From a virus (lineage: Duplodnaviria > Heunggongvirae > Uroviricota > Caudoviricetes), in the IMG/VR virus record IMGVR_UViG_2695420822_000001: DNA of 10,970 bases, one strand, 5' to 3'. This document shows positions 219 to 10,970 of the stretch, in pieces. The translations under genes were made by a program, and so were the position numbers. Within the stretch, counting starts at the first letter, position 1. Every line of letters starts with the position of its first letter. Under the pieces are notes generated by a model, which saw only the letters and a program-made list of their open reading frames with translations, ran no database searches and had not been told where the DNA came from.

Positions 219-434
219 ATGAAATCCATGGATAAGTTAACAACGGGTGTCGCCTATGGCACCTCAGCAGGTAGTGCCGGGTACTGGTTTTTACAGCTGC
301 TAGATAAAGTCACGCCCTCACAGTGGGCGGCAATTGGAGTGCTGGGTAGCCTGGTATTTGGCCTGCTGACGTACCTGACAAACCTTTATTTCAAGATTAA
401 AGAAGATAAGCGCAAGGCTGCGAGAGGTGGATAA
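219..434 (+). CDS. S: Class II holin (pinholin), phage 21 S21-like, with dual-start motif
   Basis: 71-aa ORF beginning MKSMDKL (Met1 and Met4 give the antiholin/holin dual start known for S21). Two hydrophobic segments and a charged C-terminus ([13 protein letters not shown]). GAGGTGGGG Shine-Dalgarno upstream. Stop TAA overlaps the next start (TAATG). Strong resemblance to phage 21 S as I recall it. Confidence 0.9.
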
Positions 435-931
435 TGCCTCCATCATTACGAAAAGCTGTTGCTGCTGCTATTGGTGGCGGGGCTATTGCTATAGCATCTG
501 TGTTAATCACTGGCCCAGGTGGTAACGATGGTCTGGAAGGTGTGAGACATAATCCTTACAAAGACATAGTTGGTGTATGGACTGTATGTTACGGGCATAC
601 AGGAAAAGACATCATTCCCGGTAAAACGTATACCGAAGCAGAGTGCAAAGCCCTCCTGAATAAAGACCTTGCCACTGTCGCCAGACAAATTAACCCGTAC
701 ATCAAAGTCGATATACCGGAAACAACGCGCTGCGCTCTTTACTCGTTCGTCTACAACGTGGGTGCTGGCAATTTCAGAACATCGACGCTTCTTCGCAAAA
801 TAAACCAGGGTGATATTAAAGGCGCATGTGATCAGCTACGGCGCTGGACATACGCTGGCGGTAATCAATGGAAAGGACTGATGACTCGCCGTGAGATTGA
901 GCGTGAAGTCTGTTTGTGGGGGAAACAATGA
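434..931 (+). CDS. R: SAR endolysin (T4 E-like lysozyme, signal-anchor-release type), phage 21 R21-like
   Basis: 165 aa. N-terminal Gly/Ala-rich weakly hydrophobic SAR segment ([20 protein letters not shown]). Catalytic spacing E-x8-D-x5-T in [16 protein letters not shown]. Position immediately after a pinholin is the canonical pinholin/SAR-endolysin pairing. Confidence 0.9.
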
Positions 932-1386
932 GCAGAGTAACCGCGATTATCTCCGCTCTGGTTATCTGCATCATCGTCCGCCTGTCATTGGCTGTTAATC
1001 ATTACCGTGATAACGCAATCGCCTACAAAGAGCAGCGCGATAACAAGGCCAGTGAACTGGAGAAGGCGAACGCCACCATCGCTGACATGCGGAAGCGTCA
1101 ACGTGATGTAGCAGAACTCGACGCAAGATACATAAAGGAGCTTGCTGATGCTAACGCGACTATCGAAAGTCTCCGTGCTGATGTTTCTGCTGGGCGTAAG
1201 CGCCTGCAAGTCGCCGCCACCTGTGCAAAGTCAACGACCGGAGCCAGCGGCATGGGCGATGGAGAAAGCCCAGGACTTACAGCAGATGCTGAACTCAATT
1301 ATTACCGTCTCCGAAGTGGAATCGACAAGATAACCGCGCAGGTTAACTACCTGCAGGAATACATCAGGACGCAATGCCTGAAATAA
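928..1386 (+). CDS. Rz: Rz i-spanin (inner-membrane spanin subunit)
   Basis: ATG at 928 overlaps the endolysin stop (ATGA). N-terminal TM helix ([20 protein letters not shown]) followed by charged coiled-coil-like periplasmic region. The track ORF 916..1386 starts at an in-frame GTG 12 nt upstream; the ATG at 928 is preferred. Confidence 0.85.
1148..1333 (+). CDS. Rz1: Rz1 o-spanin (outer-membrane lipoprotein), embedded in the +1 frame of Rz
   Basis: Embedded ORF with signal peptide and lipobox (LLGVSAC, Cys as lipidation site), followed by a Pro-rich mature region ([14 protein letters not shown]). The track begins at TTG 1142; the first ATG is at 1148. Fully nested in Rz as in lambda/21. 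Confidence 0.75.
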
Positions 1387-1587: not shown

Positions 1588-2085
1588 ATGAAATCATTAA
1601 CCCTCTTCAATCAACCAATTCGTATCGGTGAAGATGGCATGATCTGCCTCACTGATATGTGGAAAGCCAGTGGTAAAAGTGAATCTGAATCGCCTTACCA
1701 CTACCTGCGAAACAAGCAGACCAAAGAGTTCTTAGCCGAGCTGGAGAAAAACCACGAATCTGTGGTTTTTACTGAGCGCGGTGTACACGGTGGAACATAT
1801 GGCGGGAAGTTTGTTGCTTACGATTATGCGGCTTGGTTAAACCCCGGGTTCAAGTACGCGGCCTATAAAGTCCTCGATGACTACTTCACCGGAGAACTTC
1901 AGCATCGCAACAGCTTAAGTGCGCAGCTCAACATGAAATGTCATGAATTTGACCAGAAGAAAGACATGGCGAGCTTCTGCGGACAAGGGCTGGCAGCATG
2001 GCGCTATACGAAGCCAGTGTTGGTCGCTGAGATTAACTCCCTGGCTAACCAGCTGCAGATTACGATCCCCGGGCTTCCGGGATGA
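1588..2085 (+). CDS. KilA-N domain protein (APSES-type DNA-binding fold), function unknown
   Basis: 165-aa ORF. Motifs typical of KilA-N: GMICLTDMWKASGK and YHYLRNKQTKEFLAEL near the N-terminus, then GVHGGTYGGKFVAYDYAAWLNPGFKYAAYKVL (compare the GTWVHP..A...A.WLSP.F pattern). About 55 aa of C-terminal extension of unknown function. Family assignment is from motif recall, not a search. Confidence 0.65.
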   Translation: MKSLTLFNQPIRIGEDGMICLTDMWKASGKSESESPYHYLRNKQTKEFLAELEKNHESVVFTERGVHGGTYGGKFVAYDYAAWLNPGFKYAAYKVLDDYFTGELQHRNSLSAQLNMKCHEFDQKKDMASFCGQGLAAWRYTKPVLVAEINSLANQLQITIPGLPG

Positions 2086-2339
2086 GTGATCATGTTATTG
2101 AATGCGCCTCCAGAGCGGGGCGCGACTTCTCAGAGTTCATGAAAGGCGAGAAGGGCATGATGGAAGCATTGGCCTCGGTGGATGAGTTTGGCGAGCAGCT
2201 GCGCCTCAACGGCTGTGTCAATCATCACTTTGTTAGCTACATGATGCGGAACTCGATCATGCAGGCATTCATGGACATGGCAAAAGCCGAGAGGAAAGAA
2301 GAGCGCCGGCGTAAGCGAGCGGAAGCAAAAGCGAAGTAG
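2082..2339 (+). CDS. Hypothetical 85-aa protein, translationally coupled to the KilA-N gene
   Basis: ATG at 2082 overlaps the upstream stop (ATGA at 2082-2085). Acidic core with C-x36-C-x2-HH spacing and a highly basic tail (KAERKEERRRKRAEAKAK). No family recognised. Confidence 0.55.
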   Translation: MSDHVIECASRAGRDFSEFMKGEKGMMEALASVDEFGEQLRLNGCVNHHFVSYMMRNSIMQAFMDMAKAERKEERRRKRAEAKAK

Positions 2340-2340
2340 C

Positions 2341-2376
2341 CATTACAAAGCCCATTTACGGGTGGGCTTGATAATG
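2341..2376. repeat. Hairpin-containing direct repeat, copy A
   Basis: cat-t-acaaa-gcc... with perfect 7-bp stem aagccca (2348-2354) / tgggctt (2363-2369), followed by gataatg. Starts 2 nt after the stop of the 85-aa ORF. No T-run follows. Confidence 0.5.
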
Positions 2377-2637
2377 AAACCGGAATTTATTCTGGGCCAC
2401 CAGTTAACGGCAGTACCACGAAACAACCCAAGCCAGTAAGTGGGGAAATAACACCGGCAGCCACTGAAAGATGAACCTCCTGCCTTATGGCAAAAAAGAT
2501 TCTTTGTGGTGGCGGACTGATGGAAAGACATCCCAATTTCAGCCAAACATTGAAGGAGTTGTTATGTCAGCAGAAGGTTTCAATAACCCATCAAAATTCC
2601 GGGATGAGTGGGATAGCAGCGTAAAGAGTAAGTGATG

Positions 2638-2678
2638 CCATCACAAAAGCCATTCCCTACAGAGTGGCTTTGATAATG
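2638..2678. repeat. Hairpin-containing direct repeat, copy B
   Basis: cca-tcacaaaa-gcc... with perfect 7-bp stem aaagcca (2646-2652) / tggcttt (2665-2671), 12-nt loop, followed by the same gataatg. Same flanking words as copy A, about 297 bp downstream. Confidence 0.5.
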
Positions 2679-2693
2679 GCTTATACCCTACAC

Positions 2694-2719
2694 GGGATAA
2701 CTTAACTGATATCCCTTTT
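2694..2719 (+). terminator. Terminator-like hairpin (+ orientation)
   Basis: Stem gggata (2694-2699) / tatccc (2710-2715), 10-nt loop, followed by tttt on the + strand. On the - strand it is not followed by a U-run, so it reads as a + strand terminator. Confidence 0.35.
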
Positions 2720-2736
2720 AAAGGATAAAGGTATTC

Positions 2737-2951
2737 NNNNNNNNNNNNNNNNNNNNNNNNNNNNNNNNNNNNNNNNNNNNNNNNNNNNNNNNNNNNNNNN
2801 NNNNNNNNNNNNNNNNNNNNNNNNNNNNNNNNNNNNNNNNNNNNNNNNNNNNNNNNNNNNNNNNNNNNNNNNNNNNNNNNNNNNNNNNNNNNNNNNNNNN
2901 NNNNNNNNNNNNNNNNNNNNNNNNNNNNNNNNNNNNNNNNNNNNNNNNNNN
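2737..2951. other. Run of N (215 nt), undetermined or masked sequence
   Basis: Contiguous n characters; content cannot be assessed. Confidence 1.
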
Positions 2952-3028
2952 CACTTCTGGAGTGAATCCAGATTAAACATCTCATTGCTGATGCTTGATA
3001 TTGAGCATTTTGCGCGCGGTAAGGGGCT

Positions 3029-3626
3029 NNNNNNNNNNNNNNNNNNNNNNNNNNNNNNNNNNNNNNNNNNNNNNNNNNNNNNNNNNNNNNNNNNNNNNNN
3101 NNNNNNNNNNNNNNNNNNNNNNNNNNNNNNNNNNNNNNNNNNNNNNNNNNNNNNNNNNNNNNNNNNNNNNNNNNNNNNNNNNNNNNNNNNNNNNNNNNNN
3201 NNNNNNNNNNNNNNNNNNNNNNNNNNNNNNNNNNNNNNNNNNNNNNNNNNNNNNNNNNNNNNNNNNNNNNNNNNNNNNNNNNNNNNNNNNNNNNNNNNNN
3301 NNNNNNNNNNNNNNNNNNNNNNNNNNNNNNNNNNNNNNNNNNNNNNNNNNNNNNNNNNNNNNNNNNNNNNNNNNNNNNNNNNNNNNNNNNNNNNNNNNNN
3401 NNNNNNNNNNNNNNNNNNNNNNNNNNNNNNNNNNNNNNNNNNNNNNNNNNNNNNNNNNNNNNNNNNNNNNNNNNNNNNNNNNNNNNNNNNNNNNNNNNNN
3501 NNNNNNNNNNNNNNNNNNNNNNNNNNNNNNNNNNNNNNNNNNNNNNNNNNNNNNNNNNNNNNNNNNNNNNNNNNNNNNNNNNNNNNNNNNNNNNNNNNNN
3601 NNNNNNNNNNNNNNNNNNNNNNNNNN
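3029..3626. other. Run of N (598 nt), undetermined or masked sequence
   Basis: Contiguous n characters. Hides the 3' part of the minus-strand DUF1398-like gene and whatever lies between it and position 3028. Confidence 1.
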
Positions 3627-3929
3627 GAAAACCCCTGCTGTAGCAAGATTTTTCCTGTATTCGTAAAATGATAACTCTCCTGATTTGAATCCTTTTAAGG
3701 TGGCTTCTATAAGGCATTTATTTTTTGAAAATCTTACATTTACAACCTTACCCTGTCCTTTTATTAAAACCGTATTATCGTTTTCAAGAACAAGATGAAT
3801 ATTCTCTGTGGCTAAATAGTAAATGTAATGTGAGACATTGTGACGTTTTAGTTCAGAATAAAACCAGTGATAGTTTAAATTATTTCGCACTTTATCGAAT
3901 ATTTGTTTAAAAATGGCAACCTGAGCCAT
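3627..3929 (-). CDS. DUF1398 family protein (YbcV-like, annotated in prophages as putative envelope protein); N-terminal about 100 codons visible, 3' end lost in the N-run
   Basis: Minus-strand ORF reading [101 protein letters not shown]. Preferred start is the ATG at 3929-3927, which has a GGAAGG Shine-Dalgarno 7 nt upstream; an in-frame ATG at 3944 has none. Resembles DLP12 YbcV/DUF1398 as I recall it. Family proteins are about 130-180 aa, so the gene should end inside the N-run. Confidence 0.6.
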
Positions 3930-3986
3930 TGTAGTACCTTCCATGTGATATGAGGGGGCGTAGTCTGCACGATTATCTAAATTGCT

Positions 3987-4220
3987 TCAATCTGGTCTAA
4001 CCTGTTTTCTGAGCAATTCAGTAATGTCACTCTTTTCTTTGTTTGCTTCAGGCGAAACTCTTTTTTCTGAGCACAGTCTCCGGCGGCAGGCTTCAATGAC
4101 CCAGGCTGAGAAATTCCCGGACCCTTTTTGAACAAGAGCGATGTTAATTTGTTCAATCATTTGGTTAGGAAAGCGGATGTTGCGGGTTGTTGTTCTGCGG
4201 GTTCTGTTCTTCGTTGACAT
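3987..4220 (-). CDS. Small ribbon-helix-helix-like protein (DUF3950 / YlcI-like), putative DNA-binding regulator
   Basis: 77-aa minus-strand ORF MSTKNRTRRTTTRNIRFPNQMIEQINIALVQKGSGNFSAWVIEACRRRL... Basic N-terminal arm, then a strand-helix-helix pattern like the Arc/MetJ/CopG fold. Sits directly upstream of, and co-oriented with, the DUF1398-like gene (43-bp spacer). Confidence 0.6.
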   Translation of the reverse strand: MSTKNRTRRTTTRNIRFPNQMIEQINIALVQKGSGNFSAWVIEACRRRLCSEKRVSPEANKEKSDITELLRKQVRPD

Positions 4221-4389
4221 GAGGTTGCCCTGTATTCAGTGTCGCTGATTTGTATTGTCTGAAGTTGTTTTTACGTTAAGTTGATGCAGATCAATTAATA
4301 CGATACCTGCGTCATAATTGATTATTTGACGTGGTTTGATGGCGTAGATGCACGTTGTGACATGTAGATGATAATTATTATCATTTTGC

Positions 4390-4590
4390 GGGTCCTTTCC
4401 GGCGATCCGACAGGTTACGGGGCGGAAGGCGCGCGGGTTTTCGCTATTTATGACAATTTTCCGGTTTAAGGCGTTTCCGTTCTTCTTCGCCGTAACCTAA
4501 TGTTTTTATTTAAAACACCCCCTGAAAAGAAAGGAAACGACAGGTGCTGAAAACGGGCTTTTTGGCCTCTGTCGTTTCCTTTCTCTGTTT
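4390..4590. other. cos: cos site (cosQ-cosN-cosB) of lambda type, with variant cosN core
   Basis: Near-identical to the lambda genome ends as I recall them: ...gggtcctttccggcgatccgacaggttacg (lambda right end, contains cosQ) | GGGCGGAAGGCG (12-nt cohesive-end position, 4420-4431) | cgcgggttttcgctatttatga... cosB terminase-binding repeats: R3 cgtttccgttcttcttcg (4472-4489), R2 agaaaggaaacgacag (4528-4543) and R1 ctgtcgtttcctttct (4569-4584), R2 and R1 inverted. An A/T-rich IHF-like site lies between R3 and R2. The Nu1 start follows at 4609. Confidence 0.85.
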
Positions 4591-4608
4591 TTGTCCGTGG
4601 AATGAACA

Positions 4609-5128
4609 ATGGAAGTCAACAAAAAGCAGCTGGCTGACATTTTCGGTGCGAGTATCCGTACCATTCAGAACTGGCAGGAACAGGGAATGCCCGTTCTGCG
4701 AGGCGGTGGCAAGGGTAATGAGGTGCTTTATGACTCTGCCGCCGTTATAAGATGGTATGCCGAAAGGGATGCTGAAATTGAGAACGAAAAGCTGCGCCGG
4801 GAAGTTGAAGAACTGCGGCAGGCCAGCGAGACAGATCTCCAGCCAGGGACTATTGAGTACGAACGCCATCGACTTACGCGTGCGCAGGCCGACGCACAGG
4901 AGCTGAAAAATGCCAGAGACTCCGCTGAAGTGGTGGAAACCGCATTCTGTACTTTCGTGCTGTCGCGGATCGCAGGTGAAATTGCCAGTATTCTCGACGG
5001 GATCCCCCTGTCGGTGCAGCGGCGTTTTCCGGAACTGGAAAACCGACATGTTGATTTCCTGAAACGGGATATCATCAAAGCCATGAACAAAGCAGCCGCG
5101 CTGGATGAACTGATACCGGGGTTGCTGA

Positions 5129-5154
<26 letters not shown>
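4609..5154 (+). CDS. nu1: Terminase small subunit Nu1
   Basis: 181 aa, MEVNKKQLADIFGASIRTIQNWQEQGMPVLRGGGKGNEVLYDSAAV..., essentially lambda gpNu1 (winged-HTH N-terminus). Same length as lambda Nu1 (546 nt) and same position relative to cosB. Confidence 0.95.
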
Positions 5155-8835
<3,681 letters not shown>

Positions 8836-10552: not shown

Positions 10553-10970
10553 ATGTCGATGTACACAACCGCCCAGCTGCTGGCGGCAAATGAGCAGAAA
10601 TTTAAGTTTGATCCGNNNNNNNNNNNNNNNNNNNNNNNNNNNNNNNNNNNNNNNNNNNNNNNNNNNNNNNNNNNNNNNNNNNNNNNNNNNNNNNNNNNNN
10701 NNNNNNNNNNNNNNNNNNNNNNNNNNNNNNNNNNNNNNNNNNNNNNNNNNNNNNNNNNNNNNNNNNNNNNNNNNNNNNNNNNNNNNNNNNNNNNNNNNNN
10801 NNNNNNNNNNNNNNNNNNNNNNNNNNNNNNNNNNNNNNNNNNNNNNNNNNNNNNNNNNNNNNNNNNNNNNNNNNNNNNNNNNNNNNNNNNNNNNNNNNNN
10901 NNNNNNNNNNNNNNNNNNNNNNNNNNNNNNNNNNNNNNNNNNNNNGCCTGAGTTTAACGGACACTCCTTC
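10553..10970 (+). CDS. E: Major capsid protein gpE, 5' part; interrupted by an N-run and running off the window
   Basis: MSMYTTAQLLAANEQKFKFDP... matches the lambda gpE N-terminus, 56 nt after D as in lambda. Only 21 codons are readable before the N-run at 10616. The 25 nt after the N-run are not in frame if the N-run length is taken literally. Confidence 0.8.
10616..10945. other. Run of N (330 nt), undetermined or masked sequence inside gene E
   Basis: Contiguous n characters. Confidence 1.

Follow-up and report, generated by a model that had tools for sequence, protein, structure and literature searches.

The closest described counterpart of the locus studied here is the gene pair ynfO-ydfO (b4533, b1549) of the Qin cryptic prophage of E. 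coli K-12. Members of the same two families, DUF3950 and DUF1398, are found at the right end of phage lambda and in DLP12, where the order is bor, lambdap78/ybcV (DUF1398), lambdap79/ybcW, ylcI (DUF3950) and cos. The solution structure of YdfO (PDB 2HH8) is a structural-genomics entry with no assigned function. In the literature searched we found no functional study of either family and no defence phenotype for either gene, in agreement with the preliminary description of this DNA, which held that neither family has an experimentally defined role.

The bor and lom genes of lambda are similar to ynfO-ydfO in that they are minus-strand or autonomous and lie beside the late operon; they are dispensable for lytic growth, as the pair may be. 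Lysogen expression and phenotypes have been documented for bor and lom, whereas the ynfO-ydfO pair and its relatives are represented by scattered transcript data: ydfO mRNA rises sharply after ionic-liquid shock (PMC4077768), a pdhR mutant has tenfold less ybcV mRNA (PMC7660256), DicC induction alters ydfO (PMC11430063), and the convergent transcripts of ylcI and ybcW overlap in half or more of the K-12 RNA-seq samples examined there (PMC12288877). By CRISPRi, lambdap78 is non-essential (PMC10695390). A 2026 preprint reports that lambdap79 (K-12 ybcW) is the trigger of the Vulcan NADase defence, and describes lambda escapers of a defence system in which the region was swapped by recombination with Qin and which were still viable (bioRxiv 10.64898/2026.09.04.749371). 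The lambdap79/ybcW gene is absent from the DNA analysed here, and the Qin-recombinant escapers, which lose this gene, acquire the same adjacent ynfO-ydfO layout that the window has.

A Qin-type gene pair at a lambdoid right end

The window, by which we mean the whole 10,970-nucleotide stretch of DNA that was analysed, is a lambda-like prophage segment with the following features.

219-1386, plus strand: holin, endolysin and spanin (S/R/Rz) genes
1588-2085, plus strand: KilA-N (KilA-N/ORF11CD3 protein) gene
2082-2339, plus strand: 85-aa ORF, overlapping the KilA-N gene
2737-2951, 3029-3626 and 10616-10945: N-runs
3627-3929, minus strand: DUF1398 (YdfO/YbcV-like) gene, 101 visible codons
3930-3986, minus strand: spacer between the ynfO-type and DUF1398 genes, 57 nt
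3987-4220, minus strand: ynfO-type gene, encoding a 77-aa YlcI/YnfO (DUF3950) protein, of which residues 51-77 form the variable tail
4221-4389, minus strand: region upstream of ynfO, 169 nt
4290-4322: imperfect inverted repeat
4390-4431, plus strand: cassette boundary, from the cosQ heptamer to the cosN overhang
4609-5154, plus strand: Nu1
5129-7054, plus strand: A, followed by W, B and C

The 77-aa ORF (4220-3987, minus) scored 72.8 bits against Pfam DUF3950 (PF13132; E 2e-20; cut-off 25 bits) and 35.2 bits against NCBIfam YlcI_YnfO_N (NF041551; cut-off 30 bits), and in alignments it carried the family motif K/R-x-IRFP ... NFSAWV-E/D-AC as RNIRFP and NFSAWVIEAC. The 101 visible residues of the frame that follows it scored 106 bits against DUF1398 (PF07166, the family of YdfO, YbcV and YcgX; E 1.7e-30; cut-off 22 bits). 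The ORF and the minus-strand frame from 3929 are almost certainly a DUF3950 gene and a DUF1398 gene, as they had been annotated beforehand, and the statement that the pair runs opposite to the late genes also held, all neighbouring phage genes being on the plus strand. The GC content of the pair is distinct from that of its neighbours (31-37% for the DUF1398 gene and 42-47% for ynfO, against 52-59% for Nu1). Between the spanin gene and the cassette are the KilA-N gene and the 85-aa ORF, and Stx phages have the same two genes in the same position.

Qin and the window share gene order, strand relation to nohA/cos (nohA is divergent in Qin) and the 57-nt spacer; the YnfO proteins are 97% identical and the YdfO proteins about 75% identical. 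The two loci differ in their DUF1398 allele, the visible 101 codons in the window being identical to WP_000079508. Unlike Qin, the window has a variant cosN overhang and a full packaging and head module. Lambda and DLP12 have both families on the same strand as in the window, with the same cosQ-side upstream region, but differ from it in that plus-strand lambdap79/ybcW and about 650 nt separate the pair and in that YlcI is a protein of 64 aa with another tail. The lambda ylcI ORF (48,109-48,303, complement; 3110-3304 in locus L017), which starts 200 nt from the right end and encodes 64 aa identical to DLP12 YlcI, has no annotation in NC_001416; in some other lambda records it is entered as hypothetical.

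The DUF3950 protein is under strong purifying selection and has a sequence pattern like that of ribbon-helix-helix repressors

Alignment of E. coli prophage copies indicated that YnfO residues 1-50 are nearly invariant and the tails wholly different. Over the first 49 codons, comparison with Stx-phage copies gave a synonymous divergence of 0.45-0.66 and a non-synonymous divergence of about 0.05 (pN/pS of the N-domain about 0.1). This is strong purifying selection, and it points to selection on the YnfO protein beyond any conservation of the cos-side DNA. The DUF1398 gene is under moderate purifying selection (pN/pS 0.27-0.54), and since both genes are selected they are not mere chance ORFs. 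The tail of YnfO varies with the downstream neighbour, which suggests a recombination joint at about codon 50 of ynfO. The family is small, with 112 representatives at E ≤ 0.001 among 1.84 billion, and its distant members retain K/R-x-IRFP, an acidic helix and NFSAWV-E/D-AC.

The preliminary description had called the 77-aa protein ribbon-helix-helix-like. Its sequence pattern does resemble that of Arc/Mnt-type ribbon-helix-helix repressors: Arc and Mnt of phage P22 and CopG are similar in size to YnfO and share with it a strand motif, N-x-R-aromatic-P, and after it two helices that have a G-x-S/N-S cap. Profile-sequence comparison by hhalign put YnfO residues 14-38 on Arc 11-35, with N14 and R16 opposite N11 and R13, the base-contacting residues of Arc. 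Six of the seven ribbon-helix-helix proteins aligned in an equivalent register (P 0.004-0.17); the four controls in the same comparison gave P 0.2-0.55 and nonsense alignments.

The AlphaFold monomer of YnfO has helices at 19-32 and 34-52, with pLDDT of about 85 there and a model mean of 69.5. Its N-terminus is unstructured and forms no strand, as expected for the monomer of a fold in which the strand arises solely on dimerisation. The searches that would attach the protein to a known fold gave nothing significant: Foldseek against the PDB returned as its best small match the ParD2 antitoxin at E 8.7, a BFVD search with YnfO returned no match, and neither did PDB profile searches with two alignments of the DUF3950 family. 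In this respect Arc, Mnt and CopG differ, since none shows a significant sequence, profile or fold match to YnfO. We regard YnfO as likely to be a ribbon-helix-helix-type DNA-binding protein.

The DUF1398 gene runs into a masked stretch

The DUF1398 frame starts at 3929 on the minus strand (alternative ATG at 3944) and enters the N-run at 3626; its truncation by the mask had been noted correctly. The last ~35 codons are masked (N-run 3029-3626), and judging from its relatives the stop codon would be expected near 3519, within this mask. The YdfO NMR structure PDB 2HH8 was matched over 135 residues (E 2.9e-67) by a full-length relative that has the same sequence throughout the visible part, and the predicted DUF1398 structure had low confidence (pLDDT 50.7). 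On reading the sequence we saw no hydrophobic segment in the DUF1398 protein. It had no defence match in PADLOC (best E 0.023, to an unrelated Csx23 model), and neither it nor the DUF3950 protein matched a toxin model in Pfam or PADLOC.

We rejected two labels that are attached to DUF1398, 'head protein' (PHROG 413) and an older one, 'envelope protein', because this non-essential gene lies on the opposite strand and outside the head module. We also set aside an oxidative-stress effect of YdfO, since it goes back to Wang et al. 2010, a study that reportedly concerns yfdO of CPS-53. The two genes, ydfO (Qin) and yfdO (CPS-53), have seemingly been confused in print: the effect was credited to Wang et al. 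2010 under the name 'YdfO' (PMC4077768), and 'ydfO' is listed in the SrsR paper although the text of that paper has yfdO (PMC9181523).

One relative, L012, is 100% identical to window positions 2000-2736 and 3627-4700 and has an intact 136-aa DUF1398 ORF. The distance between these flanks is 890 nt in the window, 299 nt in 25 relatives and 1635 nt, with an IS3-family insertion, in two loci including L012. The 77-mer visible between the masks (2952-3028) is, in other prophages, part of a 50-aa ORF directly after the spanin gene, where it precedes a segment equal to window 2636-2736; in the window, by contrast, it follows that segment, out of the usual order. Given the length of the 890-nt stretch and the displaced 77-mer, the masks in 2737-3626 probably hide a rearranged second copy of the post-spanin segment. 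Exact-pattern scans of metagenome and genome collections yielded no match for the masked sequence, and searches of E. coli genomes found no record with the flank spacing of the window. The suggestion that a further gene of the operon might lie under the mask appears unlikely to be correct, since DUF1398 is the last minus-strand gene in every relative. In L012 the IS3-family transposase gene (5382-6610) is inserted directly downstream of DUF1398, and this intergenic spot thus tolerates insertions.

The two genes are adjacent in close relatives, and the pair is not obligate

The best 80 viral contigs, a sample that leans towards close relatives, all had the arrangement Nu1(-) DUF3950(+) DUF1398(+), and at 77 of these 80 loci an intact 136-aa DUF1398 ORF began 56-59 nt past the DUF3950 stop codon. 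In the window, the spacer at 3930-3986 contains a GGAAGG Shine-Dalgarno sequence ahead of the ATG at 3929, and no terminator-like hairpin was found in its 57 nt (RNA fold z-score +1.34). A weak promoter-like site, TAGACC-16-GATAAT (9/12), is located at 3999-3972 on the minus strand. With both genes on one strand and a short, conserved, terminator-free spacer between them, ynfO and the DUF1398 gene have the features of an operon, and this arrangement makes their co-transcription reasonably probable. A cloned ydfO promoter fragment behaved like a promoterless control (PMC4077768), a result that fits co-transcription from ynfO and fits weak expression equally well.

The DUF3950-DUF1398 pair is not obligate. 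Stx2a_WGPS8 and JLK-2012 have DUF3950 alone, with no DUF1398. Its neighbour there, at a distance of 41 nt, is a divergent HNH endonuclease gene, and terminase small and large subunit genes unrelated to Nu1/A come next. In lambda and DLP12 the opposite-strand gene lambdap79/ybcW sits between the two, and K-12 has three DUF1398 paralogues, with ycgX elsewhere in the genome, against two DUF3950 genes. More distant DUF3950 proteins adjoin integrases at regulatory positions, in contexts without terminase genes.

A satellite-like contig (L018, 4137-5103) carries an integrase, a small ORF and a gene for a 129-aa protein in which a Terminase_2-like N-terminal segment is fused to DUF3950. The fusion gene is divergent from a primase operon, and the spacer between them holds three GTGCA(C)AAACAC repeats. 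We considered the fusion protein beside the PICI Rpp packaging proteins, and a search of the PDB with it gave no match.

The upstream DNA lies next to cos

The preliminary description had drawn cosQ too wide, at 4221-4400. By comparison with lambda, the cosQ heptamer GGGTCCT is at 4390-4396 and the 12-nt cosN overhang at 4420-4431, so that 170 nt separate the ynfO start from cosQ and 200 nt separate it from the nick. The overhang in the window, GGGCGGAAGGCG, differs from that of lambda, GGGCGGCGACCT, at 5 of 12 bases, with cosQ and the flanks lambda-like; this variant was present in 9 of the 84 fetched loci with this cos context, including L001 and L012.

The 169-170 nt upstream of ynfO hardly differ between the window, lambda, Qin and DLP12, and this near-identity among lambda-type copies makes footprinting by comparison impossible. 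Any ynfO promoter must lie in 4221-4389. A consensus scan found no minus-strand sigma-70 consensus in 4221-4400, and the ribosome-binding site of ynfO is weak. The region does contain an inverted repeat at 4290-4322 (ATCAATTAATACG / CGTCATAATTGAT), imperfect, with 13-nt arms and a 7-nt gap, 70-102 nt upstream of the ynfO start codon, which is kept in lambda, Qin and DLP12 and is the sole operator candidate that we found for YnfO. No counterpart of this repeat was found upstream of the Stx-phage copies, and the lambda-type and HNH-type upstream regions had no motif in common beyond chance. After DUF1398, no canonical or intrinsic terminator was found in the relatives, and Rfam had no match in the window. 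On the plus strand, just upstream of cosQ and directed towards Nu1, there is a sigma-70-like site at 4357-4384 (GTGACA-16-TATCAT, 10/12), which overlaps a palindrome, ATGATAATTATTATCAT, at 4368-4384.

A proposed accessory cassette and its alternatives

We interpret the locus, with moderate confidence, as a Qin-type ynfO-ydfO accessory cassette at a lambdoid right end, positioned between the lysis genes and cos and read against the late operon. Its first gene would encode a dimeric ribbon-helix-helix-type DNA-binding protein, in which residues 13-18 (RNIRFP) would be the DNA-reading strand, the helices would span 19-32 and 34-52, and the tail would be dispensable. A weak promoter within the 170 nt that separate the ynfO start codon from cosQ would drive ynfO, and YnfO may repress this promoter itself, although we propose such autorepression tentatively. 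The DUF1398 gene would be co-transcribed with ynfO, and its product, predicted to be soluble and cytoplasmic, would be the cargo of the cassette. Expression would occur from the resident prophage; lytic growth would not need the cassette, and late transcription running through it would occlude it. An accessory, lysogen-expressed role seems fairly probable. Several results weigh against parts of this interpretation: the non-significant fold and profile searches, a YnfO model with a mean pLDDT of 69.5 and no strand, the scans that found neither a minus-strand sigma-70 consensus upstream nor an intrinsic terminator after DUF1398 in relatives, the weak ribosome-binding site, the search that found no operator motif in common with the Stx-phage copies, and the cases in which the two genes are unlinked. 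The preliminary description was right in its observation and annotation of the pair, and its interpretation is partly supported.

The main alternative that we weighed holds that the two genes are independent neighbours brought together by mosaic recombination, with DUF3950 tied to the lysis/packaging junction and DUF1398 as separate cargo. Independence is supported by Stx2a_WGPS8 and JLK-2012, where DUF3950 occurs alone next to HNH and terminase genes of which the latter are unrelated to Nu1/A, by the splitting of the pair by lambdap79/ybcW on the other strand in lambda and DLP12, and by a YnfO tail that changes with the downstream neighbour, as if joined at about codon 50, but the 56-59-nt, terminator-free spacing in 77 of the 80 close relatives speaks against it, and we consider it somewhat unlikely. 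Under this alternative DUF3950 might, for instance, bind DNA where the packaging module starts and there affect transcription or DNA transactions. The fusion of DUF3950 to a Terminase_2-like segment in the satellite-like contig is in its favour; the lack of a common DNA motif in the lambda-type and HNH-type upstream regions and the distant members in contexts without terminase genes are not. A narrower form of this proposal makes YlcI/YnfO more than a regulator of cargo: it would be a DNA-binding protein dedicated to the lysis/packaging junction of cos phages, where it might limit terminase access or read-through at the packaging site of the resident prophage. This would explain its position beside two unrelated terminase systems, its nearly invariant N-domain and the satellite fusion to a TerS-like DNA-binding segment; we regard it as improbable.

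The remaining proposals concern what the cassette does. As a prophage defence or superinfection-exclusion cassette with DUF1398 as its effector, it would have the position and orientation of lysogen-expressed cargo such as bor, an AT-rich gene, and the retention of that gene in the cryptic prophages Qin and DLP12; the locus is also tied to phage-defence interplay through the neighbouring lambdap79. The PADLOC result (nothing better than the unrelated Csx23 model at E 0.023) and the literature searched, which holds no such phenotype, leave this proposal improbable as well. A type II toxin-antitoxin-like pair, in which YnfO would be the ribbon-helix-helix antitoxin and its variable tail would neutralise a DUF1398 toxin, is very improbable: each gene occurs alone, lambda and DLP12 split the pair, so that the expected co-occurrence was not found, neither protein matches a PADLOC or Pfam toxin model, and the K-12 paralogues number three for DUF1398 and two for DUF3950. 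The least probable proposal is that the genes are decaying, non-functional remnants conserved merely because they flank cos. Such decay would be in keeping with the near-identity, among lambda-type copies, of the 170 nt upstream of ynfO and of its first 150 nt, and the exact downstream sequence in the window is masked, but the excess of synonymous (0.45-0.66) over non-synonymous change (about 0.05) against Stx-phage copies and the intact DUF1398 ORF in 77 of 80 loci oppose it.

Distribution of the pair

The ynfO-ydfO pair is already known, being present in K-12 and lambda and annotated in thousands of genomes. DNA matching the region occurred in 4755 of 5426 complete E. coli genomes, at a median of two places per genome, and the matches were annotated 'DUF1398 domain-containing protein', 'YlcI/YnfO family protein' and 'terminase small subunit'. 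The assembly collection has 8495 blocks with the exact 77-aa protein; on these counts the pair is already catalogued. It is very common and ordinary, and in itself it matters little. Its appeal is that two genes of the best-studied phage and of most E. coli strains are still without an assigned function, and a small, strongly conserved, DNA-binding-like protein encoded beside cos would be a cheap target for a first functional study.

Many YlcI/YnfO and DUF1398 'homologues' filed under unrelated taxa, among them Pseudomonas, Flavobacterium, Cohnella, Staphylococcus, a spider and a fungus, were in fact phage lambda DNA (L110-L138; proteins P0023-P0120). The six such contigs that we checked, about 3.5 to 4.5 kb in length, shared 99.8-100% identity with lambda 45,042-48,488 or with the lambda right end, and presumably match the nanopore 3.6-kb control amplicon. 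These lambda-derived records, of which a 3566-bp Arcanobacterium hippocoleae 'plasmid' (L115) is an example, inflate the apparent taxonomic range of both the DUF3950 and DUF1398 families.
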